In this document: one piece after another, positions 5,203 to 20,283 of the stretch | How the letters are laid out: every line of letters starts with the position of its first letter | How positions within the stretch are numbered: the stretch's first letter is position 1 | Assembly: GCA_963675665.1 (NCBI GenBank) | Contig: OY776510.1 | Span: 427,815-491,814, forward strand | Length of the DNA: 64,000 nt | Direction: 5' to 3' | Source of the DNA: Spirochaetia bacterium | Lineage (GTDB): Bacteria > Spirochaetota > Spirochaetia > UBA9216 | The notes under the pieces: model-generated | What the model was told of the DNA's origin: nothing | Databases searched by the model: none | Seen by the model: only the letters and a program-made list of their open reading frames with translations | Made by a program: the position numbers and the translations under genes

Positions 5203-6696
5203 TTAAAGAATGAGCATCAAGACTGCAAAGCTGAGAAAAAGCAGGCCGGTAAGAATTTTGATTATCCCCAGGTTGGTTTGAAATATTCCGGTAATCTTTT
5301 TGGATGTAATCCCCAGATATACGACAATGAAGACTACAGCCAGAGGAATAATAAATGCAAGATTATACAATGCAAGGTAAAAATAACCCGAAGCAGCTTT
5401 ATCAGTCTGAATAATATAAGTAATAGTCGGAAAGTAGATCTGCCCTGTACAACCCAGTTCAAATATCGATATCAGAAAGCCCATAACAATTGAACTTCCG
5501 GCAAGAGCCGCTGATTTCGTATAGGACCTTATAGAATCATGCATCCGCCGTTTTACAGAATCCGGAAGCTGTAAAATTATATCTTTTGTCTTTCCAGAGC
5601 GAATTTTCCCGTAATCATAAAAACTCAACCCCGCAAAGACAACAAGAACAGCAAAAAGAACCCACCTTATTATCCGGCTTACCAGCTCAAACGAATCGGC
5701 AATTCTTATAATTTTGAAAAATCCCAGCCCTATCAGATAATAGGTTATAAATACCGTTACCGTAAAAAACAGTCCGATAATCAGTGTCTCGCGCCGGCTT
5801 CTTCCGGCAACACTCAGCGCGCTTAATAAAAATATCAAGGTCGTAAAAGCACAGGGGTTTACTCCGTCCAGCAATCCGGCGGCAAGAACCGCAGCCAGAG
5901 ACATGCTTATTCCATCAGATTTATTTCCCTTGCTTTCATTTTCTCCGGACGCGCCTGTATCCCGGCCGGAGTCGCCGGCCAGCAGCGCGGTATAACCTGC
6001 CATGACGGCTTCTTCACCCTGATAAATATCCTCTGTCGTAACAAAAACCGGGATCTCTTTTAACGATGTTCCGCGGTCGGCAAACAGCTGCTGCAGTTCT
6101 TCATAATACTCAGCTTCTGTTATATCCCGCTTGTCAATATTAATTTCGGCATCACGGAGAAACCGGTTGCAGCTCTTGCAGCCCGGGGTATAGTAATAAC
6201 GGGGAATCTCTGTTGTCCCTTCCCCGGACATAATACCCGCGGAAGATTCCGGTTCAGCCGGCATTGTCGAATCATCCGCTGCATCTGCAGATACCGACGA
6301 AACATCCACACTGCCTGTAACTACAAAAAAGCCCTTGGGCATTGCATCTGAATTGGTCTGAATTATAAGCAGTTTTTCGAAGTCGCCGGAATCGTCATGG
6401 CTGTCAAAAACAATTGTAAATTCCGCCGATTCTCCGGCGGATATATCAAGGCTTTCAGGATAAGTTGTCATACAGCTGCAGGTACTGATTAAATCAACTG
6501 TAACATTTTCCGTAGTGTTGTTGGTAATTTTAACCGGCTGTTCAACAACATCCCCGTACTCAATCGAGCCTGTATTCCAGTCGGTTATGCTGAATTCGAG
6601 ATTGCCGCCGTCATCCTGGGCTGCAGCCGAAAATAAAACCAGAAAGGAAAAAGCAAGAGTTATAAATAATCTGTTCAGTCTGTTAATTTTTTCCAT
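5203..6696 (-). CDS. Periplasmic DUF1573-like domain + CxxC module fused to CcdA/DsbD-type thiol-disulfide transmembrane domain
   Basis: Signal peptide. Beta-sandwich-like N-domain with CSCM. YYYTPGCKSCNRF (CxxC). C-terminal TM core with conserved Cys in TM1 (VNPCAFTTL) and TM4 (ELGCTGQ), as in CcdA/DsbD-beta. Confidence 0.6.
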   Translation of the reverse strand: MEKINRLNRLFITLAFSFLVLFSAAAQDDGGNLEFSITDWNTGSIEYGDVVEQPVKITNNTTENVTVDLISTCSCMTTYPESLDISAGESAEFTIVFDSHDDSGDFEKLLIIQTNSDAMPKGFFVVTGSVDVSSVSADAADDSTMPAEPESSAGIMSGEGTTEIPRYYYTPGCKSCNRFLRDAEINIDKRDITEAEYYEELQQLFADRGTSLKEIPVFVTTEDIYQGEEAVMAGYTALLAGDSGRDTGASGENESKGNKSDGISMSLAAVLAAGLLDGVNPCAFTTLIFLLSALSVAGRSRRETLIIGLFFTVTVFITYYLIGLGFFKIIRIADSFELVSRIIRWVLFAVLVVFAGLSFYDYGKIRSGKTKDIILQLPDSVKRRMHDSIRSYTKSAALAGSSIVMGFLISIFELGCTGQIYFPTITYIIQTDKAASGYFYLALYNLAFIIPLAVVFIVVYLGITSKKITGIFQTNLGIIKILTGLLFLSFAVLMLIL

Positions 6697-7594
6697 TCTT
6701 CAGGTTATTGATTAATTCCTTTTTATAATCTTCAAACGCCTGAAGAATAATCGGATCTTCAGGGTCCTTTTCATATGTAAAGTAGCGCATACTGTTTGAA
6801 ACAGATTTCAGCTTTTTTAATCTGAACGACAGTTCGAGCCTTCCGACCCTGTTGCCTTCCTCACCGGGAGAAGCAATCACCCGCTGTCCGTCGATATTCT
6901 CATAAAGTATCTGATCATGCGCCGACAGGATCGCGTCCCATCCGGTTTGATCAGCAAATATTTCCTTTGAAGCATCAAGATTCCCATGATAAACCAGCAG
7001 CTTGTAATGCGCGCCGCCGTCGACCAGAGCCTTGTATGCCTGCACAGCCGAATCGACCGGTGAAAAAACACTGACCCTTGATTTGACGTCCTCCGGATAA
7101 AAGAAAAACACACCTGGATCTATTACTGCTGCAATTCCGATTTTAATTCCTTTCCTCTCAATGATTAAAGGCTTTTGATTGACCGGTTTACCGTCTATTT
7201 TTACGTTGTCCGCTATAAACGCAATCTCCCCTGATATGGATTTAAAAAAATCGACGCCTGATCCCAGCTCCTGATCGCCGAGAGCCGCCGCATCATAACC
7301 AAGCCCGGAATACAATTCCACAAGCTTGGCGCTTAGAAGCTTGTCTGTGCGGGCATCGTTAAAATCACCGAGATCTATTATCACTGACGATTCCGGATCA
7401 AGTCCGCGTATATATGCTGCAGTAGTGGACAGCCCGGCTTTTGGCACTCCCTTACACTCACAGCCTATAAGGTTTCCATTGAGTGATGCTGTATAGTAAA
7501 TGGAAACATCCGTATCGGCAAATATGCCTGCTGATGATAAAACGGTTAAAGTCAGAACGGCAAGCAGCAGTCTGAAAGCAACCGGTTTAGCCAT
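6683..7594 (-). CDS. Secreted calcineurin-like / 5'-nucleotidase-like phosphoesterase, possibly degenerate
   Basis: Signal peptide. DLGDFND and VYHGNLD resemble metallophosphatase motifs II/III, but a canonical GNH[DE] motif is not evident. Overlaps neighbours at both ends. Confidence 0.4.
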   Translation of the reverse strand: MAKPVAFRLLLAVLTLTVLSSAGIFADTDVSIYYTASLNGNLIGCECKGVPKAGLSTTAAYIRGLDPESSVIIDLGDFNDARTDKLLSAKLVELYSGLGYDAAALGDQELGSGVDFFKSISGEIAFIADNVKIDGKPVNQKPLIIERKGIKIGIAAVIDPGVFFFYPEDVKSRVSVFSPVDSAVQAYKALVDGGAHYKLLVYHGNLDASKEIFADQTGWDAILSAHDQILYENIDGQRVIASPGEEGNRVGRLELSFRLKKLKSVSNSMRYFTYEKDPEDPIILQAFEDYKKELINNLKNGKN

Positions 7595-8151: not shown

Positions 8152-8619
8152 TCAATCCGCTTTGCATATTATCAGTTCCCAAACAATGGAATCTTCTGTT
8201 TCAAGGTGCATATGAAAACCAAACCGTTTATGTAGACGTATTGAAGCCTCATTATTCCTGAAGCTTCGGCTTAAAAGTCTGTATAGCTTCCTTCTGCGGC
8301 AATCCTTAATCAGATCATCCATCATTAACGTTCCCAGGCCCTGTTTCTGTTTTGAAGGCAGAACCGCTATATCATAAATATGCGCTGTTTCAGTAATACG
8401 GGCATCACGCGGCCAAAGGGAATAACGGTAGAAACCTGCTATAACATCTCCGTCAAAAAGGTATTTAACACGGTCTTTATCGGTATTGTGACTATCAATC
8501 ATATCCGCAATCTTTTCAGAATCTGTTTTCTCACCGAATTCCCGCGGCCATTCAGCATTAATTAAATCAATTATTTCCGAGTAGTCCGGCAATCCTTCAA
8601 TTTCTTTAAACATCATCAT
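8152..8619 (-). CDS. GNAT family N-acetyltransferase
   Basis: GNAT motif A (QKQGLGTLMMDDLIKDCRRRK). Size 155 aa. Confidence 0.7.
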   Translation of the reverse strand: MMMFKEIEGLPDYSEIIDLINAEWPREFGEKTDSEKIADMIDSHNTDKDRVKYLFDGDVIAGFYRYSLWPRDARITETAHIYDIAVLPSKQKQGLGTLMMDDLIKDCRRRKLYRLLSRSFRNNEASIRLHKRFGFHMHLETEDSIVWELIICKAD

Positions 8620-8639: not shown

Positions 8640-9503
8640 TCATATAAGCAGCCTTGTTGAGTCTTCCGGACTGTCAAGCGGTATTCTGATTACAGATAGC
8701 TCATCACCGTCATGCGCTCCGTTAATACATACGGTCCGGCCTATTTTCTGCATCCAGCTTCCGCTCAATCCTGCAGATTCATGCACATGCCCGTGTAAAG
8801 TCAGAAGCGGCTGACGCTCCTCAATAAAACGGTAAATTGCAATACTTCCAAGATGCTCATCGACCGGGACATGATCTACAACTGCGGCCCCTACATCGCC
8901 CAGATCCAGATCCGTACTGTAGGGCGGTGCGTGAAACAGAAACACTGCCTTATCAAGCTGTTCATCAGCAGTCAAATCATCAATATCATCTTTTATTGTA
9001 GTCCACTTCTGTTCATGCTCGCTGGCCGGAAAAGATCGCCGGCCTTCTTCGGGACTGATGCATCCGACATCGATATATCTGGAAACATCATACCGTTCCC
9101 AGTCTTTCAGCATAAAAGGCGTCGGCGGTACATAGTTATAACCGTAAAAGGAATAGCTTTCCGCCAGCACTTTACGCTGATGGATATATGTCCACAGTCC
9201 GTTTGCGCCGCCGGAAACCAGGGCTGATTCAAAATATTTCGGATCATCGTTTCCCATAATAATTAATGTTTCCGGATATTTTTTGCCGAGACGATTTTTT
9301 AAATCAGTAAAGTTTTTCACGAGGAATCCGTTTATAAAATCACTACCTCCGGGAACCGCAGAATCCGTCGCGGGCATAAAAGGCGAAAGGAGATCTCCTC
9401 CGACAAGAAGAATGTCCGGAGGGTTGCCGAGTAAATATTCAAACAGGGAAAGGTACCTTTCTTTTTTTCCGTGAAGATCCGTAACAAAAACAGCATCAGG
9501 CAT
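8640..9503 (-). CDS. Metallophosphoesterase (calcineurin-like)
   Basis: Motifs DLHG, GGDL, GNDD and GHVHE. Start overlaps the stop of the upstream gene by 8 nt. Confidence 0.7.
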   Translation of the reverse strand: MPDAVFVTDLHGKKERYLSLFEYLLGNPPDILLVGGDLLSPFMPATDSAVPGGSDFINGFLVKNFTDLKNRLGKKYPETLIIMGNDDPKYFESALVSGGANGLWTYIHQRKVLAESYSFYGYNYVPPTPFMLKDWERYDVSRYIDVGCISPEEGRRSFPASEHEQKWTTIKDDIDDLTADEQLDKAVFLFHAPPYSTDLDLGDVGAAVVDHVPVDEHLGSIAIYRFIEERQPLLTLHGHVHESAGLSGSWMQKIGRTVCINGAHDGDELSVIRIPLDSPEDSTRLLI

Positions 9504-12500
9504 TTTCAGATCCTAATTTAAGTTCTCTTGCGGCATCGGTAACTGCATTTATTTTTACCGCAATACTGGTTCGTTTTTCAATATCCGAATCTGTAAGATA
9601 ATGAACATCGAGTAATTCTTCAGTTTTATAACCGGTCCGCAGATAATTAATCCTGCCCAAAGCCCGGCTCCAGCCGTCAAGCCACAGGGCAAGCGCTTCC
9701 TTTTTCCCGGCGTCATCACCAATATGAATTATCAAATCAATATCGCTCATCGGTCCGGCGGTTGCATTCTTTGTGCTGCCGAAGAGATAAAAGGCCTTCA
9801 CCCCGAAGAACCCGGCATCCAGCGATTCCGCAATAGTTTCCGCCATTGAATAGCGCCAGCTCCAGTAATCTTCATGTGTTTCGTTGTTATGGGAATATAT
9901 ATCAATTTGTTTACCGGAAGAAGAGGGATCGGAAAAAATGGCGATCGCCTCATTAATCTCCTCGTTCATAAGAACCTTCAAGACCTTTCCTTCTGTTTCT
10001 TTTCTGATATCGGTTACGAAAATAACACGGGAGAGCTCCGAAAAGTCCGGAAGTATCTCAGTAAGTATATTCTTTGAACGCGTTAAAAATGCATCTTTCA
10101 TCAATATTCCGGGATCGTCGGGATACAAAGGAAGATATTTTATTTCGGCCTCAACAAGATCCTGAAAAAAATGAGTTCCGAAAGAGACTTCGGGAAGATA
10201 ATCCCCTTTTTTCCTGGCAATCTCAATCAGCATGGCGGTATTATTAATATCCGAGTAATTAACCCTTACTCCCAGTTTAATATCTCCGCGGCTTCCCCAA
10301 CGCCCCGGCCCCATAAGAATAAAACGGCGTTTCGGAAGAATTGAATTCAGCCTGCCGACAGCGGCCCCCACGCGTTCCAGCTGTTCAAACGACGGTAAAT
10401 CATTGTAGGCCTCAGGATCTATATAAACAATATAGTCGATATTATCAACAAGCCCGTTTGCAATATGCTTCTTCGCTGTAAAAAGAACCTGGTTCTCGTT
10501 TATATCCTTGGGAATGGGCTGAGGAAGGCTTTCCCGAACCCCGGCCTGGGGCCTGCACTGGAGAAGAAAAAGCCGGCCGCCGCTGAAAGCGAATTCTATA
10601 TCAACAATTGTATTTAAACGTTCTTTCAGTTCATCTATTATGGATTTTATTTTTTCAATAAGACCTGTATTTCGAATCAGCGGATCAAGAGTAAACACAA
10701 GATCATCATTCGCCGTATCAAGCTGAAATTTATTCCTGTTCTTGAAAATATCATCTTCAAATACAGAAAACAGAAGATCCATATCGGGATATGTAACCGG
10801 GTTGTTTCTCAGAAAATCTCTGACATTAACGGTTTCGAATATATTCGTACGCAGATTTATCACATCCATCATTCTGGGTGAATACCTTACAGCTTCGGAC
10901 GGCAAAGGATTTACCTTCATCCCCGGATTTCCCGGGCAGATTAATACGGGATAATCATCGCTTAACCTGTCGACAGCCCGGGTTCCGAGACCGGGAACTA
11001 TCCTGAGCAGACCGTCTTCCTTTGAAATCCTCGGGGACCAGCGATATTCATTACGGCCGAATCCTACGCCTGCAAAAGAAGGGAAAAAAAAGTCTCCCGC
11101 CTGTTCTCCGACAACCTCCTGAATAATAACAGCCATCTCCTCATGAAATTCAAGAAGACCATGCGCTTTTCGGTATTCAAGCGGATCCGGGCCGAAAGTT
11201 GAAGCATATATTTCTGCTATAGCATCCAGTACAGCCGTAAGACGCTCCTCTCTGGATCCCTGATTGGCAAGAAAAAGACTTTTATATTTACCCGAAAAAG
11301 CAGTTCCGTAACGGTCTTCCAGCAGGCTGGAACTTCTTACAATAACGGGTTTGTTTCCGAAGTCTTCCATAGCCATTGACAGTCCGTTGACAAAATCGAT
11401 TGGAAAATTCGAGTTCTTGAAAACCTGTATCAGATTCGGATAATCCGCCCTGATTTCTTCTATATCCTTGTATTTCTGTTCAAGAGATTCTTCAAGGTTA
11501 TTATAATAAATAAATTTATGCATATAATCCGAAGATATATACCAGGTTTTCGGAATACTTACATCTATGCCCGCCTTTTTCAGAAACTGCCCGGCAATAA
11601 ACAGACCGGCGCTTTTGCCTCCAAGTTTTCCATGACTGTTATTAGGGTATATTGCGTGCTGCAGTACTGAATAAAAATCATTTACATCAAGGTAATCTTT
11701 TGCTGATCTTATAAATTCCATCTGTTCAGTAAATACACGCTGTATAAAGAGCGCATTAATATTTGTTCTCGAATAACTGGAAATCTCAAAATGAGACTGG
11801 TTCAAATGATGAAATCTTGAAATGGCCGCGGCAATTCCCGATAACGGAGTATTGAAATTCTCCAGCGCACTGACAAGAAAGCCTGTTTTATCTTCTTTGA
11901 TCCATTTATTCAGATATATTTTTATTTCGTCCTCAGACAAATTCTGGGATGCAATCTTGAAAATATGCTGATTAAATTTATCGTACAGTTCAAAGTTAAT
12001 TTTTAGAGACGGGATATTCACATCCTGAAGAACAGTAATATTTTCGCATTGTTTCTGAAGGCCCATACATCCGAGAACGCTCTGAGCTTCCCGGACGCCC
12101 AGCAGACACAGCCGGTTCAGCATACGTCTGGATATTTTCCTGAAAAGAATACTGTCCATTTTTTCCACCAGTTCAAGAATAACCATCCAGTCCGGCTTTT
12201 TGTTGGCATCGATATCCTGCCTGGCTTTCTCCCACTGTTCAAGCGAAAACTGAAGATCCTGCTGAAAGAGAAAATTTTCAATTCTTTCGGCTATGGTATT
12301 AAGCAATTGCTGTTCTTCAGGAAGAAACGGACTTGACAACCGTGTTGAACCGTCGCTGAAGTGAACTTCTATGATACCGACCGGCTCGCCGCGAAGTATT
12401 AATTCCGCACTTTGGAACCATTTTGATGTCGAGAACCCGTCCGTCGTATAACTTTTATTTCTATAAACGATCCTTACTGAGCAGAACGCCGGAAACTGCC

Positions 12501-12660
12501 ACCCGGAAGGAATAATATCTATAAGCCTGGGGAACACATCCTCTATACTGAGCTGTTCCTTGTTGACAACTTCCTTGACTCTGTAAAGACATTGGAGCTC
12601 TTTTGCTCTTTCATTTAGATTCTGAATCAACGTATTCTCATCGAATGAATTACCGTTCAT
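9496..12660 (-). CDS. Multidomain protein: N-terminal sensor-like domain + PEP-synthase/PPDK-type ATP-grasp (PPDK_N) + conserved GRWGS domain + C-terminal Pol-beta-type nucleotidyltransferase
   Basis: PPDK_N motifs: GGKSAGL, VIVRSSSLLEDRYGTAFSGKYKS, VIIQEVV, IEFAFSGGRLFLLQCRP. GPGRWGSRGD...GTHFF is shared with the downstream paralog. NTase motif GS...DIDLIIH. No phosphohistidine swivel motif seen. Confidence 0.6.
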   Translation of the reverse strand: MNGNSFDENTLIQNLNERAKELQCLYRVKEVVNKEQLSIEDVFPRLIDIIPSGWQFPAFCSVRIVYRNKSYTTDGFSTSKWFQSAELILRGEPVGIIEVHFSDGSTRLSSPFLPEEQQLLNTIAERIENFLFQQDLQFSLEQWEKARQDIDANKKPDWMVILELVEKMDSILFRKISRRMLNRLCLLGVREAQSVLGCMGLQKQCENITVLQDVNIPSLKINFELYDKFNQHIFKIASQNLSEDEIKIYLNKWIKEDKTGFLVSALENFNTPLSGIAAAISRFHHLNQSHFEISSYSRTNINALFIQRVFTEQMEFIRSAKDYLDVNDFYSVLQHAIYPNNSHGKLGGKSAGLFIAGQFLKKAGIDVSIPKTWYISSDYMHKFIYYNNLEESLEQKYKDIEEIRADYPNLIQVFKNSNFPIDFVNGLSMAMEDFGNKPVIVRSSSLLEDRYGTAFSGKYKSLFLANQGSREERLTAVLDAIAEIYASTFGPDPLEYRKAHGLLEFHEEMAVIIQEVVGEQAGDFFFPSFAGVGFGRNEYRWSPRISKEDGLLRIVPGLGTRAVDRLSDDYPVLICPGNPGMKVNPLPSEAVRYSPRMMDVINLRTNIFETVNVRDFLRNNPVTYPDMDLLFSVFEDDIFKNRNKFQLDTANDDLVFTLDPLIRNTGLIEKIKSIIDELKERLNTIVDIEFAFSGGRLFLLQCRPQAGVRESLPQPIPKDINENQVLFTAKKHIANGLVDNIDYIVYIDPEAYNDLPSFEQLERVGAAVGRLNSILPKRRFILMGPGRWGSRGDIKLGVRVNYSDINNTAMLIEIARKKGDYLPEVSFGTHFFQDLVEAEIKYLPLYPDDPGILMKDAFLTRSKNILTEILPDFSELSRVIFVTDIRKETEGKVLKVLMNEEINEAIAIFSDPSSSGKQIDIYSHNNETHEDYWSWRYSMAETIAESLDAGFFGVKAFYLFGSTKNATAGPMSDIDLIIHIGDDAGKKEALALWLDGWSRALGRINYLRTGYKTEELLDVHYLTDSDIEKRTSIAVKINAVTDAARELKLGSENA

Positions 12661-14390
12661 AGTATAATAATTCCTTTCCGGGTATTTCCGTCTGCTATTA
12701 TTTTAATACTTTTTTCAAATTTTATGTGCTTAAAAAACTTGCCTTCAAAAACAGTCTGTTGAGACTCCAGATAATTATAGTCTATAAAGCTGTCATTGTC
12801 CCGGCTGCAGGAATCTATCGAGAAATACACTGTGTCAGTATTCAGAATATTATGAAAAAAATGCGAACCCTGACTGAGTTCCGGATTCATCTCCGGCAGC
12901 GTGGATTCGATGATTACGGAAGCCCCGGAAATCTGGGACCAGCTGACCGGAATTCCTAATGCCGGGTCCGAAGATCCCCAGCGGCCGAACCCGGACAAAA
13001 TATATCTCTTGCCCTCAACAACCAGTTTCCGGTTGATTCTCTCAATTTCCAGCGGCATCTCGGCTGTTTTCAATGCGGAAAATCTTTGCGGATTTATATA
13101 GACAAAATCTTCAACATTTTCAATATATACGTTCCCCAGGGCATTATCGGTATAGGCAACCAGTTTACTCCTGTCGAAAGAAGATATATCAGGGACAATA
13201 CAGGTATTAAGTCTTTTCATGGGCCTTATTTGAAGAAAGGCGAAATCAGCCGTAGGTTTTTGAGGAAAATCAATATTGACGGCAAATTCGATTTCTATTT
13301 CGGAACCTGTTTTTTCCCTGCATTTATCAAGAATATCCGTAACAAGTCTGTTTAAATTTATTATTTCGCCTTTAAGAATAGGTGAAAAATCAATTAGCTT
13401 GAAACCGGAGTCAAGAAAACCCATTTCCAGCCTGTCGGAGGACCTTGAATATGTCGAGCAGAGGCTGCTAATAATTTTACTTTCTTCAAGGCTTTTTACA
13501 GGCTGCAGCGACAAAAACTCTTTTTCATCAAGAGGCGACTCCTTATCCGGCGGTTTTAAATCAATTGCCCAGAAATCAGTCTGCCCGGCATCAAGAAGGT
13601 TTTTCAACGATGCGGGAGGCGGTGAAGCAGGTTTTTCAGGACTGTATATCCATTTTCGTCCGCCGTCAACAATTGTCTTTCCAAGTCCGGCCGCAAGTTC
13701 CACAATACCGCTTTCCGGCTTGCATCCGCTGAAAGGATAATAATTATATGAACGGCCGACGCCTGAAAATGCCGGATAAAAATATCTTCCGTATGATTTA
13801 CCGTGAACCCTCTGGATAATGACCGCCATCCTTTCCATATCAATATCAATACCGGCTGATTTAAAACTGTCCCGGGAGGCTTCGAACCAGACTGATGAAT
13901 ACACAAACTTTACAGCATTAATAAGCTGCAGAAACCTGACATCAGGGTCAGGATGATTATTGGGAATCATTTTTGTTGCAAACAATCCGGCAAAAGGCCT
14001 GTTTAAAGAATCTTCGGTCAGACTGGAGGAACGTATTGCAAGAGGGCCTTTCCTGCCGTTTGAAATCTTTCTTACCTCTCCGATCAAAAACGGCGGAAAA
14101 GAAGCTTTGTTAAATAAAAGTGAAATCTGTTCATCTGTCTTGTTGTTTATGAGTTCAGATCTTAATTTATTTTCATTAATAAAAAGAGTAAATACATCAG
14201 AAAGAATGACTGTCATTTCGGGAACCCCGACAGAGATTCCGTGCCTGCCAACATCAGAAAAATATTCGTCTATCAGCGATTGTATCCTGATAAGGCCGGA
14301 ACCTTTTCCTCCCGGAGCTCCGCTTCCAATAAATGATATTTTATTGTTCATAAAGATAAAAACGCCGGATACCGGCACGGTATCCGGCAA
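12657..14390 (-). CDS. PEP-synthase/PPDK-type ATP-grasp (PPDK_N) domain protein, paralog of 9496..12660
   Basis: PPDK_N motifs: GGKGSGL, LAIRSSSLTEDSLNRPFAGLF, VIIQRV, IEFAVN...FAFLQIRP. Followed by GFGRWGS...GSHFF. 4-nt ATGA overlap with the downstream gene. Confidence 0.6.
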   Translation of the reverse strand: MPDTVPVSGVFIFMNNKISFIGSGAPGGKGSGLIRIQSLIDEYFSDVGRHGISVGVPEMTVILSDVFTLFINENKLRSELINNKTDEQISLLFNKASFPPFLIGEVRKISNGRKGPLAIRSSSLTEDSLNRPFAGLFATKMIPNNHPDPDVRFLQLINAVKFVYSSVWFEASRDSFKSAGIDIDMERMAVIIQRVHGKSYGRYFYPAFSGVGRSYNYYPFSGCKPESGIVELAAGLGKTIVDGGRKWIYSPEKPASPPPASLKNLLDAGQTDFWAIDLKPPDKESPLDEKEFLSLQPVKSLEESKIISSLCSTYSRSSDRLEMGFLDSGFKLIDFSPILKGEIINLNRLVTDILDKCREKTGSEIEIEFAVNIDFPQKPTADFAFLQIRPMKRLNTCIVPDISSFDRSKLVAYTDNALGNVYIENVEDFVYINPQRFSALKTAEMPLEIERINRKLVVEGKRYILSGFGRWGSSDPALGIPVSWSQISGASVIIESTLPEMNPELSQGSHFFHNILNTDTVYFSIDSCSRDNDSFIDYNYLESQQTVFEGKFFKHIKFEKSIKIIADGNTRKGIIIL

Positions 14391-14395
14391 TATTA

Positions 14396-15691
14396 TTAAG
14401 TCCAGCCACGCTGTTTACAGGCGTCGGCCACACGATTAACAGAAATTATGTATGCAGCATCTCTCATGTAAAGATTATTCTTTCCGGCAAGTTCCGAAAC
14501 AGACATAAACGCTGAAGTCATCTTTAGATCAAGTTTACTTATCACCTCATCTTTTTCCCAGTAATAATTCATATTATTCTGTACCTGCTCAAAATAGCTG
14601 CATGTTACTCCCCCGGCATTTGCGAGAAAATCCGGAATTATAAATATTCCGCGCTCTTTTAAAATTTCATCTGCTTCAGGGGTCGTCGGACCGTTGGCCG
14701 CTTCGGCAATTATCTTTACACCTTTGCCTATTTTTCCAACAGTCTCTTTGGTTATCTGATTTTCAAGTGCCGCAGGAATAATAATATCAACATCCTGCTC
14801 AATCCAGACATCCCCCGGAAGCACCTCATATCCCAGTGAAATTGCCTTTTCACGGTCTATACCTCCGAACCGGTCGGCTATTCCCCGAAGCTCTTCAAGG
14901 TTTATCCCGTCTTTCTTCCTGAATGAAAATGATTTCGACTCCTTTTGATCCCAGCAGGATACGCAAACAACAGTTCCGCCAAGCTGTTCATACAACTGTA
15001 TTGCATACTGGGCAACATTGCCAAACCCCTGAATACTGGCGATTGTTTTTTCAGGCGACATATTAAGTTCCTTCAAGGCCTCTCGCAGGGTAAATATCAC
15101 CCCGAAACCGGTTGCTTCAGTTCTTCCAAGGGACCCGCCGAGACCGACCGGTTTACCGGTAATTACACCGGGATATTTTGCTCCGGTTATGGCTTCGTAC
15201 TCATCCAGCATCCAGATCATATGTTGGCCGTTAGTCATTACATCCGGCGCCGGAACATCGCGAACCGGCCCAAGCGCACCCGCAAGCTGTCTAATCCAGC
15301 CCCTGCAGATTCTTTCCTGTTCTCCTGCGCTAAGATGATGCGGATCACATATTACTCCGCCTTTGCTTCCGCCCAAAGGAATATCCACTACGCTGCATTT
15401 CCAGGTCATCCACATGGATAAAGCTCTGACGGTGTCAATTGTTTCAAGCGGATGAAATCTGATTCCGCCTTTCCCCGGACCAAGCGCATCATTATGCTGA
15501 CACCTGAATCCGTTGAAAACCTTAACACTCCCGTCATCCATTCTCACGGGGATATTTACATGATATTCCCGCATGGGAACCCTTAAAAGATCTCTTGTGC
15601 CCTGATCAAGCATAAGATATTCGGCAATATTGTCGAACTGCTGTTGTGCCATTTTAAACGCATTATAAGACTGGTCTTTCATTCTCTGCAC
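14396..15691 (-). CDS. gdhA: NAD(P)-specific glutamate dehydrogenase
   Basis: Glu/Leu/Phe/Val dehydrogenase signature (GGSKGG, catalytic-Lys region). Rossmann GFGNVAQ. Confidence 0.9.
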   Translation of the reverse strand: MQRMKDQSYNAFKMAQQQFDNIAEYLMLDQGTRDLLRVPMREYHVNIPVRMDDGSVKVFNGFRCQHNDALGPGKGGIRFHPLETIDTVRALSMWMTWKCSVVDIPLGGSKGGVICDPHHLSAGEQERICRGWIRQLAGALGPVRDVPAPDVMTNGQHMIWMLDEYEAITGAKYPGVITGKPVGLGGSLGRTEATGFGVIFTLREALKELNMSPEKTIASIQGFGNVAQYAIQLYEQLGGTVVCVSCWDQKESKSFSFRKKDGINLEELRGIADRFGGIDREKAISLGYEVLPGDVWIEQDVDIIIPAALENQITKETVGKIGKGVKIIAEAANGPTTPEADEILKERGIFIIPDFLANAGGVTCSYFEQVQNNMNYYWEKDEVISKLDLKMTSAFMSVSELAGKNNLYMRDAAYIISVNRVADACKQRGWT

Positions 15692-15892: not shown

Positions 15893-16606
15893 TTAATCTG
15901 CCGAACCGCAGATATACTCCGCATACTTATTTGGAACAAGAAGTGCTTTGCCGCCGTCAATTGTAACCCTGATCCCCTCGGTTTCAACTGCGTCAACCAT
16001 CATTCTGCGCCCCGGTCTGAGTTCATTTTCATAACAGAACTGGAGCAGACCTTCCTCGGCTTCCCCTTCTTCAGTTATCCTGACAAGCCGGACATTGCTG
16101 CTTTCAACTGCCTGACTGAGACGTGGCGCCGCAAGGATTTCATTTTCCAGGGGTGAACCGGGAAAAGGATTGCCGTGAGGACAGGTTTCCGGTCTGCCCA
16201 GTTTATCATGGAGAAAATATGCGAAATCATCAGATATTGCAGCCTGCAGCCTGGAAGCTTCCTCATCCGATTTAACCCAGTGATAATCAAGCATTTTTAT
16301 AAGAAGATGTTCAATCAGATAGTGTCTTTTCAGAAGCCTTGAGGCTGTTATTCTGCCTGAAGCCGTCAGATTTATCGAGCCGTATAGATCCTGCTCAATA
16401 AGGCTGTATCTTTTCAAACGATTCATGGCCTGTGTTACGGCGGGTTTCGATACTCCCAGACGAGCCGCTATTACCGAGTTTTTTACAATACCGTAATCCC
16501 GGTTTGTGATAAATATTTCAATCAAGTACTCCGCCGCCGCCGGGAATTTCTTTGTTAATTCTTCCAAATCATAAACCTGATCTTTTCCCATAAGCTCAGA
16601 ATACAC
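15893..16606 (-). CDS. DtxR/MntR-family metal-dependent transcriptional regulator with C-terminal FeoA-like domain
   Basis: wHTH (SVIAARLGVSKPAVTQAMNRL). Dimerisation/metal-site region with HGNPFPG. C-terminal SH3-like FeoA domain. Track ORF runs to 16639 using an ATG that lies inside the IS inverted repeat. A GTG at about 16606 with an AAGGGG RBS, or an ATG near 16591, is a more likely native start. Confidence 0.7.
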   Translation of the reverse strand: MYSELMGKDQVYDLEELTKKFPAAAEYLIEIFITNRDYGIVKNSVIAARLGVSKPAVTQAMNRLKRYSLIEQDLYGSINLTASGRITASRLLKRHYLIEHLLIKMLDYHWVKSDEEASRLQAAISDDFAYFLHDKLGRPETCPHGNPFPGSPLENEILAAPRLSQAVESSNVRLVRITEEGEAEEGLLQFCYENELRPGRRMMVDAVETEGIRVTIDGGKALLVPNKYAEYICGSAD

Positions 16607-16636
16607 TATTTTGCCCCTTATAAAAAGAAATTCTAA

Positions 16637-17911
16637 CATAGCTGTCCAAAATAAGGACTATTAATAGCCTGAATCCCTGGTTATAATGAATTGAGCGGGC
16701 AAGCTTAAATCATTACAACGGAAGGAAAACAGGCAATGAGTTATAAGAATAGCATTTTAAATCAGATACTTCAAATCATTCCGAGACATGAATTTGAAAG
16801 ATCTGTCAGAAAGTATAAAGGAGATTTTGCTTCAAAAGGATTCTCCTGTTGGGAACAATTTGTTTCAATGCTGTTTGCCCAATTTACAGGACAGACCGGA
16901 CTTAGAGGCATAGAAACAGCATTGGATTCGATTAAAAACATGCTTTATCATTTGGGGGTAAAAAAGCTTAAACGCTCAACACTTTCCTATGCAAATAACA
17001 ACAGACCCTCAGAAATTTATGAAAATGTATTCAATAACCTGCTGACAAAGATCCTTAAAATGAAAAGGTCTCATAAGCATAGATTTAAAAATCCGCTGTA
17101 CAGTGTTGATGCGACAACCATCGATTTATGCCTGTCAGTATTTCCATGGGCGAAGTTTAGAAAGAATAAAGGCGGAATCAAACTTAATGTAAAACTTGAT
17201 CACAGCGGATATATTCCGGACTTTGTATCTGTTACAACAGCTCAAACCCATGAGCTTAATTCACTCAAGAAAATGAAATTCAATAAAGGTGATGTAGTTG
17301 CATTCGATCGGGCCTATACAGATTTCAAATTATTTGCAAGTTATTGTATTGCAGGCATTTATTTTATTACTCGTATGAAAAAGAATGCAGATTATAAAGT
17401 TGTTCAAAGAAATAATGTTTCAAAATATGAAAATATTTCATCAGATCAAATAATTGAAATGCGAGGATACTACACCAGCAAGAAGTGACCACTCCAATTA
17501 CGGCGAATTAGAATAAAAGATCCGGAAACAGGAAAATATATTGTAATTCTTACAAATCAGCTTGATTGGGCACCTACAACAGTTGCTGCTGTCTATAAGG
17601 ACAGATGGCAGATAGAAATATTCTTCAAAACAATCAAACAGAACCTGAAAATAAAGAAGTTTTTTGGAACGACGAAAAATGCAGTAATGACTCAGATCTG
17701 GATAGCATTGATAACTCATCTGATGCTGCAATATCTGAAGATGTTATCTTCCGGTGGATGGACTCATTATTCGCTTATGAAATTGCTTCCATCAATCCTG
17801 ACGACCAGAAAAGATCTCTGGAATATTCTGAATAAACTACCGCCGCCCGGCAGAAATGAGCCAGGCTTAAAACTTCAAATGGAGCTGTTATGATTGTTTT
17901 GGACAGCTATG
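16637..17911 (+). mobile_element. IS4-family insertion sequence (1275 bp) with perfect 15-bp terminal inverted repeats and 9-bp target site duplication
   Basis: Left end CATAGCTGTCCAAAA (16637-16651) is the exact reverse complement of the right end TTTTGGACAGCTATG (17897-17911). Flanking direct repeat AAATTCTAA at 16628-16636 and 17912-17920. Encodes a DDE transposase. Confidence 0.85.
16736..17893 (+). pseudogene. IS4-family DDE transposase (DUF4372-like N-terminus + DDE_Tnp_1), interrupted by one in-frame TGA at 17486-17488
   Basis: The 250-aa ORF 16736..17488 continues in the same frame after a single TGA (…TSKK*PLQLRRIRIKDPETGKY…WQIEIFFKTIKQ…) to a stop at 17891-17893. The uninterrupted frame would give about 385 aa. 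Confidence 0.6.
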
Positions 17912-17973: not shown

Positions 17974-20283
17974 TTATTGAAGGGAAAGACTTTTTGATTT
18001 TCTGCCCATTGCCCTGAAACTAAAATATATGGCAAGTGCAAGGATTACGGGAACTACTATCCAGACTACCTGACCTCCCTGAAAAATCTGATAGAACAGG
18101 GTAGCAACAATCCAGGCGAGAAGGGTCAGGTAAGTAACGAGAAGTGTTCCGTAGGCCCTGCCTGTTTCCTGAACGGCTACACCCAGGGCGGCAACGCATG
18201 GAAAGTAGATCAGAATAAAGAGAAGATAAGCATAGGCGCTTACGGGCGTAAAGTTGTTCCTCAGCCCGGTAAAGACGCTGTCTCCGGTTTCAAGCTCTTC
18301 GCCTGTCACCTCTTCATCTCCGTTAATAATTCCGGCGCCGAAGGGATCGGACAGACCGCCGAAGATGCCGGCAAGGTTTTCTCCGAGGGTTATAAAAGCT
18401 TCGCCGAGAACCGGGCCGAGCCCCCATCCGGAATCATCATCGCTTTCGGCAGCATCTTCCGTAACAGCTTCCTGCGCATACAGAGAATTCAACGTTCCGA
18501 CCACAGCTTCTTTGGCAAAAAGGCCGGTAAACAGACTTACGGTGGCAGGCCAATTCTCCTTTTCAATTCCCATGGGGGTAAAAATCGGAGTAATAGCTTT
18601 TCCTACAACAGATAAAACCGATTCTTCCGAATCTTCATTTCCGAAGGAACCGTCCGTTCCAAGCGAGTTGAAAAACGCCAGAACCAGCACGACAAGAATG
18701 ATCACCTTTCCCGCCCTGAAAAGGTAAACTTTAAGTCTCCGCCAGGCGCTTTTTGTTATCTGCCCCAAACGCGGTCGGTGATATTCGGGCAACTCCATGA
18801 CAAAAGGAGAGTATTCACCCTTCAGGATACTGCTTTTAAGTAATAGTCCCGTAAGAATTGCCAGCACAATCCCCGCTGCGTAAATCGAGAATACAACGGC
18901 TCCGGAACGTGTTCCAAAAAAAGCGGCTGTGAACAGCGCATAAACAGGCAGACGGGCACCGCAGGACATAAACGGGGACATAAAGATGGTCATGAATCTG
19001 TCCCGCCTCGATTCCAGAGTCCTGGTCGCCATAATAGCCGGAACAGTACAGCCGAAACCGACAAGCATGGGAACAAACGCCTTGCCCGGTAGACCGATTG
19101 CCCTCATTGCACGGTCCATAACAAAAGCAGCTCTGGACATGTACCCGGAATCTTCAAGAATAGCCAGCATAAAAAACATTACAAAAATAATGGGAACAAA
19201 AGTCGAAACGGTCTGAATACCTCCGCCAATACCGCCTGCGATTATCGAAGTAAGCCATTCCGGACTTCCGATATTCGACAGCAGAGTTCCGAGACCGTCG
19301 ACAAAGATTCCGCCGAAAACAATATCAAACCAGTCTATAAATGCGCCGCCGATGCTCATTGTTACCCAGAAAACAAGGTACATAACACCTATAAAAATTG
19401 GAATGCCCCAGATCCTGTGCATAAGAAGTTTATCCGCTCCGCTGGAAGTTTCCGCTTTTTCTTCAGGATGCTTAACACAAGAATCACAAACCCCGGTAAT
19501 CCATGAATAACGATCTTCGGCAACACTCATATCAACGCTTGTTTTCATTGAGGCTTCCAGCTTTTCAATTTGGGCATCTACTTCAATACGTTTGATACTC
19601 CCCTCTGCAAGCGAAGTTATATATTCATCTTCCTCGAGAAGGTTAACAGCAAGAAATTTTGAATTGATTTTTAATTCTTTGGCAAGCGCCCCCAGCCTTA
19701 AGGCAAGAGTCCCTACCGCCGCTTCGATTTCCGGAGAGTATTCAACTGGATAAACCGAAACCGACGGCAATTTTTCAAGCACACTGATTAATTCATTCCT
19801 GAAATTATCCAGGCTATCCTTTCTTACTGCAGAAAGCGGAATTACCGGGCAGCCGAGCTTCAGGGAAAGTTTTTCAACATCTATGCCGAGGCCTTCCTTT
19901 TCTGCCGCATCCATCATATTAAGTGCTATAACAACCGGAAGTCCGGCTTCCAGAATCGTTCCGGTCAGATAAAGATTACGTTCAAGATTTGCCGCATCAA
20001 TAATACTGACAACACAATCAACATTACCGCTGATGAGAAAATCACGTGCGACGCGCTCATCTTCAGACTCTGCAGAAAGACTGTATATACCGGGAAGATC
20101 AACTACTCTGTAATCCGACTTTTTCGTTTTTAACAGGCCCTGTTTGCGCTCAACAGTTACGCCGGGCCAGTTGCCGACTTTTGCGGTGGAACCGGTAAGT
20201 CCGTTAAAAATTGTAGTCTTTCCGCAATTCGGATTACCCGCGAGCGCTACCGTTATTGTTTTTGTTTCTGTTGCAGTATTCAT
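17974..20283 (-). CDS. feoB: Ferrous iron transporter FeoB
   Basis: N-terminal G-domain (GNPNCGKTTIFNGLTG, DLPG). Gate motifs and large polytopic membrane domain. 769 aa. Confidence 0.9.
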   Translation of the reverse strand: MNTATETKTITVALAGNPNCGKTTIFNGLTGSTAKVGNWPGVTVERKQGLLKTKKSDYRVVDLPGIYSLSAESEDERVARDFLISGNVDCVVSIIDAANLERNLYLTGTILEAGLPVVIALNMMDAAEKEGLGIDVEKLSLKLGCPVIPLSAVRKDSLDNFRNELISVLEKLPSVSVYPVEYSPEIEAAVGTLALRLGALAKELKINSKFLAVNLLEEDEYITSLAEGSIKRIEVDAQIEKLEASMKTSVDMSVAEDRYSWITGVCDSCVKHPEEKAETSSGADKLLMHRIWGIPIFIGVMYLVFWVTMSIGGAFIDWFDIVFGGIFVDGLGTLLSNIGSPEWLTSIIAGGIGGGIQTVSTFVPIIFVMFFMLAILEDSGYMSRAAFVMDRAMRAIGLPGKAFVPMLVGFGCTVPAIMATRTLESRRDRFMTIFMSPFMSCGARLPVYALFTAAFFGTRSGAVVFSIYAAGIVLAILTGLLLKSSILKGEYSPFVMELPEYHRPRLGQITKSAWRRLKVYLFRAGKVIILVVLVLAFFNSLGTDGSFGNEDSEESVLSVVGKAITPIFTPMGIEKENWPATVSLFTGLFAKEAVVGTLNSLYAQEAVTEDAAESDDDSGWGLGPVLGEAFITLGENLAGIFGGLSDPFGAGIINGDEEVTGEELETGDSVFTGLRNNFTPVSAYAYLLFILIYFPCVAALGVAVQETGRAYGTLLVTYLTLLAWIVATLFYQIFQGGQVVWIVVPVILALAIYFSFRAMGRKSKSLSLQ

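Follow-up and report, generated by a model that had tools for sequence, protein, structure and literature searches.

Organization of the locus

The window analysed here, a 64,000-nucleotide stretch of DNA from a Spirochaetia bacterium, carries on its minus strand a module with the conserved order glutamate dehydrogenase (GDH), B, A and metallophosphoesterase (MPE) (Table 1). Two paralogous reading frames of 1054 and, from a TTG codon, 577 aa had been described from the letters alone (hereafter the sequence-only reading), and both were borne out. The downstream ATG is the most likely start of B, as indicated by a terminator-like hairpin over the TTG side and by close homologues of 561-568 aa. 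The ATGA overlap between B and A was confirmed (CTATGAACGG), and the two genes are translationally coupled at this locus. B-A fusion proteins of ~1620-1650 aa occur in many genomes, and the two proteins form a functional pair of subunits. MPE begins within A, with an overlap of 8 nt that covers the A stop codon. The hairpin that separates GDH from B consists of 12 bp (8 G-C pairs) with a 3-nt loop, followed by a T-tract, and 19 of 56 other loci have a similar hairpin and T-tract in the gap that separates GDH from its neighbour.

Table 1. Positions of genes, domains and signals in the window
Feature	Position	Strand	Remarks
MPE	8640..9503	-	Pfam Metallophos E 8e-10
Paralogue A	9496..12660	-	1054 aa, ATG start; sensor, helical region, ATP-grasp, carrier-like domain, NTase
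A minimal Pol-beta nucleotidyltransferase (NTase), residues 932-1054	9499..9867	-	GS…DxD at 9736-9780
A carrier-like domain, residues 725-910	9931..10488	-	GRWGS 10291-10305; GTHFF 10165-10179, His830
A PPDK_N ATP-grasp	10495..11628	-	GGK 11614-11622, RSSS 11326-11337, IEFA 10588-10599, LQCRP 10549-10563
A long helical region, residues 136-340	11641-12255	-	AF2 secondary structure
A N-terminal helix and GAF-like beta-sheet domain, residues 1-135	12256..12660	-	AF2 secondary structure, Foldseek
Paralogue B	12657..14351	-	564 aa from ATG 14351; 577 aa with TTG at 14390
B swivel-like domain	12660..13178	-	GRWGS 12972-12986; GSHFF 12855-12869, His510 (577-aa numbering)
B PPDK_N ATP-grasp	13203..14312	-	GGK 14304-14312, RSSS 14022-14033, IEFA 13281-13292, LQIRP 13221-13235
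Terminator-like hairpin and T-tract	14353..14389	-	between GDH stop codon and B ATG
GDH	14396..15691	-	hexameric ~430-aa type; likely start ATG 15682
GDH His115 codon	15338..15340	-	motif GGV-I-CDP-H-HLS; candidate recognition or acceptor residue

MPE can be classed as calcineurin-like by its DxH, GD, GNH(D/E)-type, H and GHxH motifs. The corresponding residues (D9xH11, G36D37, G84N85D86D87, H191 and G238H239xH241) do not vary, or hardly vary, among 29 orthologues, and the best PDB sequence match is 2yvt (E 5e-4).

Domain architecture of A and B

The PPDK-type ATP-grasp domain that had been read into both proteins was recovered by Pfam, in which PPDK_N matches residues 345-722 of A (E 4.9e-53) and residues 27-396 of B in 577-aa numbering (E 8.3e-27). 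The signatures listed for it are present, but the spellings VIRSSS, SFAG and GSHFF do not hold for A, which has IVRSSSLLED…AFSG and GTHFF. K349, R442, S443, S444, E448, D449, E689, Q701 and R703 of A are invariant, the B motifs reach at least 90% conservation in the B family, and a catalytically intact ATP-grasp of the PPDK type is predicted in each subunit. Foldseek matches to this domain of A include the rifampin phosphotransferase (RPH) 5hv3 (E 1.2e-13), the PEP synthase 2ols and HpeI (9goj). Pfam matched neither PEP_mobile nor PEP-utilizers_C in A or B; the reported lack of a PEP/pyruvate TIM barrel agrees with this result, and no such barrel or other small-molecule substrate domain was found in A/B by Pfam or in the AF2 model of A.

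By BLASTP, A and B can be aligned over a stretch that starts at the GGK loop and takes in the GRWGS…HFF domain (E 1e-36, 25% identity over 531 columns); since the alignment spans GRWGS…HFF, the shared C-terminal domain is real, far beyond chance. It comprises ~190 residues, always follows PPDK_N directly across the family and is a putative phosphoryl carrier of the swivelling beta/beta/alpha type. L, GRWG, G, E and S-x-G-x-H-F-F are invariant in 108 A-type and B-type sequences, the first motif taking the form GRWG(S/T), and B ends ~55 residues past the HFF motif. The structure model of the carrier-like domain is confident. The sequence-only reading could assign the domain to no known family, and Pfam (E<=10) and PDB sequences likewise gave nothing meaningful. 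Sequence homology to PEP_mobile was not detectable (domain-only hhalign probability 0.4%), a Foldseek search with the domain gave no significant match, and the GGxxTH motif is absent from it. Profile alignments with PpsA fell into three different registers, in one of which GRWGS, and not the His, aligns with GGRTCH.

The additional parts of A were examined in an AF2 model (pLDDT 82.9, pTM 0.69). Its N-terminus, previously suspected to be a sensor, matches no Pfam family and appears GAF-like and sensor-like in the model: Foldseek retrieved GAF domains (6oei/3K2N, bacteriophytochromes, 6oaq) with probabilities of 0.94-1.0, though with E values of only 0.07-0.2. Cys24 and Cys60 are near-invariant in this domain. 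At the other end, the model places the NTase after the carrier-like domain, to which a disordered linker (916-929) joins it. Residues 953-1028 match NTP_transf_2 (28.2 bits, cut-off 21), the motif FGSTKNATAGPMSDIDLIIH lies at 959-978, and G961, S962, D973, D975 and D1018 are invariant in 104 homologues, in line with the intact GS…DxD centre described earlier. With Foldseek matches to the MNT antitoxins 8xeh/8xeo/7bxo/7ae9, to 2rff and to ANT(9)/AadA and ANT(4'), the C-terminus is predicted, by motif and fold, to be an intact minimal nucleotidyltransferase of the MNT type.

Breadth of the family

The architecture proved not to be rare: at least 590 species genomes contain it, and 2224 clusters at 50% identity make up the domain family. 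The module was found in more than a dozen bacterial phyla, among them Acidobacteriota, Ignavibacteria/Bacteroidota, Cloacimonadota, Calditrichota, Planctomycetota, Spirochaetota and Zixibacteria; the family has spread vertically, with 46-53% identity. A and B constitute separate families of thousands of members each, and their duplication is ancient. Full-length sizes of ~1055-1075 aa for A and ~565-600 aa for B are kept in thousands of sequences and are therefore not the result of truncation.

None of the well-characterised families against which a profile check had been proposed fits the pair: NCBIfam whole-protein models scored 12-60 bits against cut-offs of 456-1700, over the first ~180 ATP-grasp residues only. 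A and B fit no curated family and are best placed, as a branch that has no name, in the dikinase superfamily of PEP synthase, PPDK and rifampin phosphotransferase. PPDK_N is the sole strong Pfam match, and public labels name dikinases, as would be expected of an ordinary PEP synthase, PPDK or rifampin phosphotransferase with missed domains, or of a split gene or pseudogene. Such an identity is extremely improbable in view of the NCBIfam scores and of the missing PEP-utilizers_C and PEP_mobile. Together with the conserved full-length architecture, these results effectively refute an ordinary or truncated dikinase.

Many family members carry receiver domains at the N-terminus. In a paralogous branch, receivers replace the GAF domain, and the genes lie beside a second GDH class (GDH2); the link between GDH2 and this receiver-domain B-type paralogue is an association independent of the first. 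In a 992-aa paralogue (locus L001) REC2 retains the acidic pocket, Asp, Ser and Lys, and a gene for a REC+GerE response regulator comes after that of a 1524-aa member. Receiver fusions, the kept REC2 pocket and the adjoining regulator would all suit a non-canonical sensor kinase, in which the ATP-grasp and carrier pass phosphate from His to a receiver Asp, the output is signalling or transcription and GDH is a regulated neighbour. This is improbable, as the odd-architecture contigs are few and short, the N-terminal receivers look like inputs, the output domain of A is an enzymatic NTase rather than a DNA-binding domain, and no response regulator or DNA-binding gene recurs near the A/B clade in 82 loci.

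Glutamate dehydrogenase as the conserved partner

GDH, which links carbon metabolism with that of nitrogen, was identified here by Pfam (ELFV_dehydrog_N, E 7e-53; ELFV_dehydrog, E 3e-69), by its catalytic GG-x-KGG loop and by its closest PDB entry, Thermococcus GDH 1euz (E 8e-123). Its score against NCBIfam GdhA_Arch (470 bits) lies under the equivalog cut-off of 750, and it is therefore treated as a GDH-family enzyme with an assumed substrate. The sequence-only reading overlooked this upstream gene and named MPE and a GNAT gene as partners; MPE directly follows A in 37 of 64 loci (~58%), but the GNAT gene is not conserved.

The linkage was counted in 64 informative loci centred on A, from many phyla, with GDH at least 60% identical. 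GDH adjoins the A module in 61 of them (58 upstream on the same strand, 3 divergent), three A genes have no neighbouring GDH, and B is present in 48. The GDH copies upstream of B/A are 65-75% identical to the GDH here. A reciprocal scan of 61 GDH-centred metagenome loci found B or A directly downstream in 46, and GDHs of the same clade with no B/A nearby in 14. Conserved gene linkage is equally expected from a shared metabolic pathway. De novo clustering of 82 loci revealed no recurrent neighbour besides GDH, B and MPE. The transfer reaction suggested by the sequence-only reading is still consistent with the data. The genomic context points to GDH as its object, and GDH is proposed as the conserved upstream partner and target of the module.

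Position 115 of GDH is His in 89 of 92 B/A-linked enzymes and in 6 of 14 members of their clade that have no such link (Fisher p 1.4e-6, for the best of 428 columns and uncorrected for phylogeny), and Lys in Thermococcus GDH and the GDH2 paralogues. A role of His115 as recognition or acceptor residue may be taken as a lead only. The sensor domains, the hairpins after GDH and the way in which His115 tracks B/A speak for a regulator and not for an enzyme of a pathway.

It is conceivable, although unlikely, that B and A are instead a small-molecule enzyme pair that phosphorylates and/or adenylylates a GDH-related metabolite, for instance a derivative of glutamate or 2-oxoglutarate, or a signalling nucleotide. 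In that case GDH would either be a partner in the pathway or respond allosterically to the product, which MPE would hydrolyse. Linkage to a metabolic enzyme is a classic pathway signature, the NTase has the aminoglycoside nucleotidyltransferases ANT(9), AadA and ANT(4') among its structural matches, and the characterised relatives PpsA, PPDK, RPH, HpeHI and PigC/RedH all use small molecules (PMC4844700 for RPH). This sits poorly with a B subunit made up of ATP-grasp and carrier-like domain only, with the lack of any counterpart of the TIM barrel or rifampin-binding domain in the pair, and with the 82 loci, in which no further biosynthetic or transport gene recurs. GAF-like and receiver inputs and terminators after GDH fit regulators better, and the same module has been recruited by two GDH classes.

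Relationship to characterised systems

RPH (e.g. 5hv1/5hv3/5fbs) comes closest in structure (Foldseek E 1e-13 to 1e-10) and likewise combines an N-terminal PPDK-type ATP-grasp with the lack of a PEP/pyruvate TIM barrel. In contrast to RPH, A/B have no rifampin-binding domain, with nothing between ATP-grasp and carrier-like domain in the AF2 model, and the latter lacks GGxxTH and detectable sequence homology. Scores against the RPH models RIF_Ptrans_rph NF041857 (35.5 bits, cut-off 999) and NF000283 (12 against 1700) are low, and the GAF-like and NTase domains, the heteromeric or duplicated organisation and the GDH context set the pair further apart. With PpsA and PPDK, A/B share PPDK_N with all nucleotide-binding motifs (for B against PpsA, hhalign probability 94-99% over the ATP-grasp) and the order of ATP-grasp and swivel-like domain, but they lack the PEP-utilizers_C barrel, PEP_mobile is undetectable by sequence and equivalog scores are far below cut-off. 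In phenylphosphate-synthase-type HpeHI, whose HpeI (9goj) is a top match, dikinase function is also divided over two adjacent genes, and a swivel His shuttles between sites (PMC12167813), as is proposed for A/B. There, however, one subunit holds the ATP-grasp and the other the swivel and substrate domains, whereas B and A each hold ATP-grasp and carrier-like domain and have no aromatic or other substrate-binding domain.

Enzyme I-Ntr (PtsP) has a GAF domain N-terminal to a swivel phosphohistidine domain, passes phosphate to a protein and is tied to nitrogen, glutamine at the GAF domain inhibiting its autophosphorylation (PMC4848567). It runs on PEP by means of a TIM barrel, in contrast to the ATP-grasp of A/B; profile similarity to E. 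coli PtsP is not significant (hhalign probability 0.3%), and no NPr/HPr-like gene occurs in the module in 82 loci.

In the GlnE/GlnD system of adenylyl- and uridylyl-transferases, which act on glutamine synthetase and PII, a Pol-beta-superfamily NTase exerts reversible covalent control over a central enzyme of nitrogen assimilation, and the same logic is proposed for A. The differences are that A/B have no GlnE or GlnD match at E<=0.1 (Pfam, NCBIfam), that the NTase of A is of the ~120-aa minimal MNT type, that the proposed target is GDH instead of glutamine synthetase and that removal is proposed to occur through a separate metallophosphoesterase. The closest fold and size to the C-terminus of A are found in MntA (HEPN-MNT), which AMPylates a protein partner; the A NTase, by contrast, scores 20.1 bits against MntA_antitoxin NF047752 (cut-off 60), has no HEPN partner and is fused to a 930-residue dikinase-like body.

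This nearness of fold to MNT antitoxins and weak PADLOC matches to candidate models (NTase to PDC-S09, MPE to PDC-S10) could indicate a toxin-antitoxin or anti-phage defence element around the NTase, which we consider most improbable. The PADLOC matches are domain-level (E 6e-5 to 1e-2) and B matches nothing; neither A nor B matches PHROGs, a HEPN partner is absent and no small neighbour gene recurs in 82 loci. The neighbourhood is that of a housekeeping GDH in 95% of loci and not a defence island, and the family is widespread by vertical descent.

A possible covalent switch for glutamate dehydrogenase

As B and A stand directly behind GDH across more than a dozen phyla, the pair is plausibly an on/off switch for GDH. 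A sensor-controlled covalent-modification switch, acting on GDH by phosphoryl and/or AMP transfer and reversed by the phosphoesterase, has in our judgement a little less than an even chance of being correct. A narrower version, a first protein-directed dikinase of the PPDK/PpsA type that combines a phosphohistidine carrier with an AMP-transferase, switches GDH on GAF or receiver input and is served by MPE as eraser, is more tentative.

In PPDK, PpsA and RPH the ATP-grasp cleaves ATP to AMP and loads the phosphoryl group on His. For the proposed GDH switch, we infer target, chemistry and phospho-His formation as follows. The ATP-grasp would split ATP to AMP, and the swivel-like domain would receive the phosphoryl group on its conserved His. 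The carrier would hand this group to a protein, most likely GDH, otherwise the partner subunit or the NTase; a protein acceptor is favoured because A/B contain no small-molecule acceptor domain. The transfer from Enzyme I to HPr is comparable to this step. A swivel His domain ferries phosphate between sites in HpeHI (PMC12167813) and in RPH (PMC4844700). The NTase of A would attach a nucleotidyl (AMP) group to that target protein too, in the manner of MNT and GlnE, and the Foldseek matches include, by their PDB entry titles, AMPylated HEPN-MNT structures. GAF or receiver inputs would set the direction by nitrogen, carbon, energy or redox status, for which the glutamine control of Enzyme I-Ntr autophosphorylation through its GAF domain offers a parallel (PMC4848567). 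Finally, the metallophosphoesterase would strip the modification, and the net result would be reversible covalent control of GDH with a logic like that of GlnE/GlnD control of glutamine synthetase.

A literature search found no publications on the B/A-GDH module. To our knowledge, the post-translational control of bacterial GDH is much less well understood than that of glutamine synthetase, and the characterised dikinases of the superfamily act on small molecules or glucans, never on proteins. If the proposal is correct, the superfamily would extend to protein targets, its swivel carrier domain would have diverged here past the reach of sequence methods, and GDH would be under a GlnE-like regulatory layer that has been overlooked so far. 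Carriers of the module comprise hundreds of species from many phyla, mostly uncultivated, and in sediments, soils, digesters and guts such a layer would be a widespread, unrecognised control of the catabolism of nitrogen compounds and amino acids. Even with a metabolite as target, the pair represents a large unannotated enzyme class of at least 2200 clusters at 50% identity that is mislabelled publicly; homologues are recorded as "pyruvate, phosphate dikinase", "pyruvate, water dikinase" or "PEP synthase".

Domain composition of A and B

Pfam searches placed a PPDK_N domain at residues 345-722 of A (E 4.9e-53) and at residues 27-396 of B (E 8.3e-27), and an NTP_transf_2 domain, above the gathering score, at residues 953-1028 of A; PEP_mobile and PEP-utilizers_C were detected by Pfam in neither protein. 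The two tandem paralogs can be aligned over 531 columns at 25% identity (E 1e-36), and the alignment reaches through a shared C-terminal domain with the motifs GRWGS and G(T/S)HFF. These results bear out the sequence-only reading, which had proposed a PPDK-type ATP-grasp domain without the phosphohistidine and PEP-binding domains in both proteins, a shared GRWGS…HFF domain and a C-terminal nucleotidyltransferase in A; its motif strings were essentially correct, with minor spelling differences in A. Also in keeping with that reading, neither protein could be placed in a well-characterised family. Matches to the NCBIfam equivalogs for PEP synthase, PPDK, RPH and PigC/RedH were confined to the first ~180 ATP-grasp residues and scored 12-60 bits against cut-offs of 456-1700, which leaves very little weight to the view that A and B are an ordinary PEP synthase, PPDK or RPH.

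Foldseek searches were made with the domains of a full-length AF2 model of A (pLDDT 82.9, pTM 0.69; domain limits in the table). The ATP-grasp domain matched RPH (E 1e-13), Neisseria meningitidis PEP synthase and HpeI, and the nucleotidyltransferase (NTase) matched MNT antitoxins, a Sulfolobus minimal NTase, ANT(9), AadA and ANT(4'). Matches of the N-terminal domain were to GAF domains, with high probability and weak E-values, and hhalign found no significant similarity between the A N-terminus and the GAF domain of PtsP. Both enzymatic centres of A look active, since the catalytic residues of the ATP-grasp and NTase domains are invariant in 104 homologues. Two near-invariant cysteines of the GAF-like domain, Cys24 (motif ERAKEL-x-CLY) and Cys60, are a potential redox- or metal-sensing site.

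Through their ATP-grasp domain, A and B are members of the dikinase superfamily. Unlike PpsA and PPDK, they have no TIM barrel and no PEP_mobile domain detectable by sequence; unlike RPH, they have no rifampin domain, and membership tests place them outside MntA and GlnE/GlnD.

Features of the locus and of related loci (window positions unless a protein or another locus is named)
Feature	Position	Strand	Remark
GDH	14396..15691	minus	glutamate dehydrogenase
GDH His115 codon	15338..15340
GDH insertions	14900..14960		residues ~240-285
Terminator-like hairpin	14353..14389	minus	12 bp, 8 G-C pairs, 3-nt loop, T-tract
B	12657..14390	minus	public gene call
A	9496..12660	minus
Cys24 and Cys60 of A	12481..12591		A residues 24-60
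MPE	8640..9503	minus	metallophosphoesterase
GNAT	8152..8619	minus
Redoxin, DsbD-like, MFS		minus	further downstream
303-aa ORF	6683..7594	minus
DtxR-like repressor	15893..16639
250-aa ORF	16736..17488	plus
feoB	17974..20283
A model, helix and beta-sheet domain	residues 1 to ~135		N-terminal
A model, long helical region	to residue ~340
A model, ATP-grasp	residues 345-705
A model, carrier-like domain	residues 725-910
A model, disordered linker	residues 916-929
A model, NTase	residues 932-1054
Second module, locus L001	11267..16524		~990-aa paralog
P0261 region, locus L097	62..5307		gene of a 1524-aa family member and the gene after it

The shared carrier-like domain

Searches with the GRWGS…HFF domain against Pfam at E<=10 (11 diverse members) and by profile against PDB sequences returned noise only. 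A separate AF2 model of A residues 711-915, computed from 108 A-type and B-type sequences, was confident (pLDDT 93.5, pTM 0.91) and gave no significant Foldseek match in the PDB. The list of structures compared with this model includes LD-carboxypeptidase, RraA, the apical domains of chaperonin and transferrin receptor, cyclase/kynurenine formamidase and aconitase/LeuD. Phosphohistidine domains themselves are also on it, and the scores were 5.5 for the PPDK carrier domain (2fm4, 108 of 128 residues aligned), 5.2 for Bacillus stearothermophilus pyruvate kinase (2e28), 5.0 for RPH (5hv1), 4.9 for maize PPDK (1vbg) and 4.8 for Enzyme I (5woy).

The residues L, G-R-W-G, G, E and S-x-G-x-H-F-F are invariant across A-type and B-type sequences, and 146 further representatives carry GRWG(S/T) and S-x-G-(S/T/A/M)-H-F-F at fixed spacing. 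In the AF2 model the histidine is located at a helix N-terminus after a Gly-containing loop, which is also the placement of the catalytic histidine in PPDK, PpsA and RPH. Profile-profile comparisons were made with Escherichia coli ppsA, ptsI and ptsP and with plasmid-borne ppsA and ppdK genes. Against E. coli PpsA and five other PpsA proteins the ATP-grasp domain was the only significant region; the carrier region fell into three mutually inconsistent registers, one of which paired GRWGS with GGRTCH and LGIPV with LGIPAVV. Because of these registers, and because a domain-only comparison with PEP_mobile domains was not significant, sequence homology to PEP_mobile is not claimed. In fold class and in position, the modelled domain corresponds to a phosphoryl-carrier domain; it may be homologous to such domains, and His830 of A and His510 of B are the candidate carrying residues.

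Genomic context and distribution

In the window, GDH, B, A, MPE and GNAT form a close-packed gene series, and the junction sequence contains the ATGA overlap of B stop and A start that had been read from it. The public gene call starts B at TTG 14390 (577 aa), which would bring a strong intrinsic-terminator-like hairpin into the coding region. B probably starts at ATG 14351, giving 564 aa, since the hairpin and T-tract fill 14363..14389 and close B homologues are 561-568 aa long; with this start the hairpin falls in the gap that separates the GDH stop codon from B. Among 56 other loci, 19 have a similar terminator-like site 3' of GDH.

Scanning a single genome for each species turned up an A homologue in at least 590 species, and 80 loci from many phyla were kept. 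Mapping the window proteins onto these loci revealed the recurrent gene order GDH-B-A-MPE. Upstream sequence was sufficient in 64 loci, which represent one species each but are phylogenetically non-independent. Among them, a GDH at least 60% identical to that of the window lies within 2.6 kb upstream on the same strand in 58, is divergent in three and is missing in three; B is present in 48 and MPE follows directly downstream in 37. The reverse test took metagenome contigs with members of the GDH clade as its starting point: of 61 informative loci, 46 had B or A immediately downstream of the GDH and 14 had neither. De novo clustering of all ORFs in the loci yielded no other recurrent family, the next best occurring in eight loci. 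Of the two partners proposed earlier, MPE is therefore retained and GNAT is not: the GNAT, redoxin, DsbD-like and MFS genes are conserved in no other locus and were rejected as parts of the module.

A second module, in locus L001, encodes a paralog in which two receiver-like domains precede the ATP-grasp and a GRWGT/GSHFF domain. The first receiver is degenerate and the second retains the acidic pocket, Asp, Ser and Lys. This B-type paralog adjoins a different GDH class (GDH2), 31-43% identical to the window GDH and with an E. coli GdhA-like loop, in L001, L049, L052, L053, L067, L068, L077 and L094, often together with MPE, and this pairing is independent of the first. Two GDH classes have thus recruited one ATP-grasp and carrier module. 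The receiver domains could also be read as part of a receiver-directed phosphorelay, which is judged quite improbable; the window has no copy of the receiver-domain paralog.

Thousands of homologues each of the A type (~1050-1075 aa) and the B type (~560-600 aa) occur, by the taxon labels of the MAG records, in Spirochaetes, Ignavibacteria, Cloacimonadota, Calditrichota, Planctomycetota, Bacteroidota, Zixibacteria, Aminicenantes, Acidobacteriota, Myxococcota and others, the closest named ones being from Spirochaetales MAGs. Their public names are "PEP/pyruvate-binding domain-containing protein", "nucleotidyltransferase domain-containing protein" and, wrongly, "pyruvate, phosphate dikinase". 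In many genomes B and A, in this order, are fused into a single protein of 1617-1655 aa, which means that the two act together. Used in an exhaustive HMM search (E<=1e-3), the C-terminal domain collected 2224 clusters at 50% identity, and PPDK_N immediately precedes it in all architectures that were checked. The family member P0261, on a single short contig, has ~970 unassigned N-terminal residues, and the next gene encodes a response regulator with REC and GerE domains (LuxR-type), a hint that a His-to-Asp relay is fed by some family members.

GDH sequence features and the module

Comparison of GDHs with and without downstream B/A gave one strongly discriminating column, position 115, after the catalytic-loop motif GGxKGGV-x-CDP. 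Histidine is found there in 89 of 92 linked GDHs versus 6 of 14 unlinked ones of the same clade (best of 428 columns; Fisher p 1.4e-6, a statistic that ignores phylogeny), and GDH2 partners and other GDH classes have Lys. This tracking is a lead and not proof. The module-linked clade also carries insertions, WDQxDxxxY and (D/E)KxKA…GYE, relative to Thermococcus GDH and GDH2. The conserved Tyr of WDQxDxxxY was rejected as a general AMPylation site because the GDH of the window has Phe at this position.

A possible regulatory role

The data establish which domains A and B contain, that their catalytic motifs are intact, that B and A can be fused and that they are linked to GDH and MPE. The module is favoured as a regulator rather than a pathway enzyme because input domains are present (GAF-like in A, receivers in the paralog), the hairpin after GDH would suit an abundant enzyme with regulators made at a low level behind it, and the MPE, whose superfamily includes protein phosphatases, retains all catalytic motifs. 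A pathway in which the dikinase and NTase act on a small molecule connected with GDH chemistry is rather unlikely, as a small-molecule substrate domain is absent and no further biosynthetic genes co-occur. A defence element receives very little weight, PADLOC and PHROGs searches for a defence or phage origin being negative.

A covalent switch on GDH operated by B and A is put forward tentatively, with doubt slightly outweighing confidence. ATP would be cleaved to AMP and the conserved histidine (or the GRWGS loop) of the carrier-like domain phosphorylated, by analogy with the ATP cleavage to AMP and histidine phosphorylation steps of RPH (PMC4844700) and HpeHI (PMC12167813). The phosphoryl group would then pass to a protein acceptor, most likely GDH, as from Enzyme I to HPr. 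The MNT-like NTase of A might nucleotidylylate the same target, the GAF-like or receiver domains would exert control, and MPE would undo the modification. Enzyme I-Ntr is controlled by glutamine through its GAF domain (PMC4848567). Functionally, the module would come closest to a combination of dikinase chemistry as in RPH, sensing as in Enzyme I-Ntr and enzyme modification as in GlnE. The full-text literature, in a search whose coverage was incomplete so that an earlier description is possible, gave no account of the A/B architecture or of a GDH-linked dikinase/NTase; there is a fair chance, though less than even, that the module is a categorically new regulatory system.

Other observations

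The MPE carries a family-specific invariant insert, YGYxYVPPTPFxLKDWERYDVSRYVDPGC, and has no close relative of solved structure: among PDB sequences, Aquifex aq_1956 matches best (E 5e-4). tRNA and Rfam scans of the 64-kb window gave no match. The 303-aa ORF between the redoxin gene and a DUF1573-DsbD_TM fusion has no Pfam match and a weak NCBIfam match to UshA-like/5'-nucleotidase (E 4.5e-14, far under the cut-off), and is not conserved with the module. The 250-aa ORF flanked by the DtxR-like repressor and feoB genes contains DUF4372 and a DDE_Tnp_1 transposase domain reduced to its first half, and looks like a truncated IS4-type transposase.
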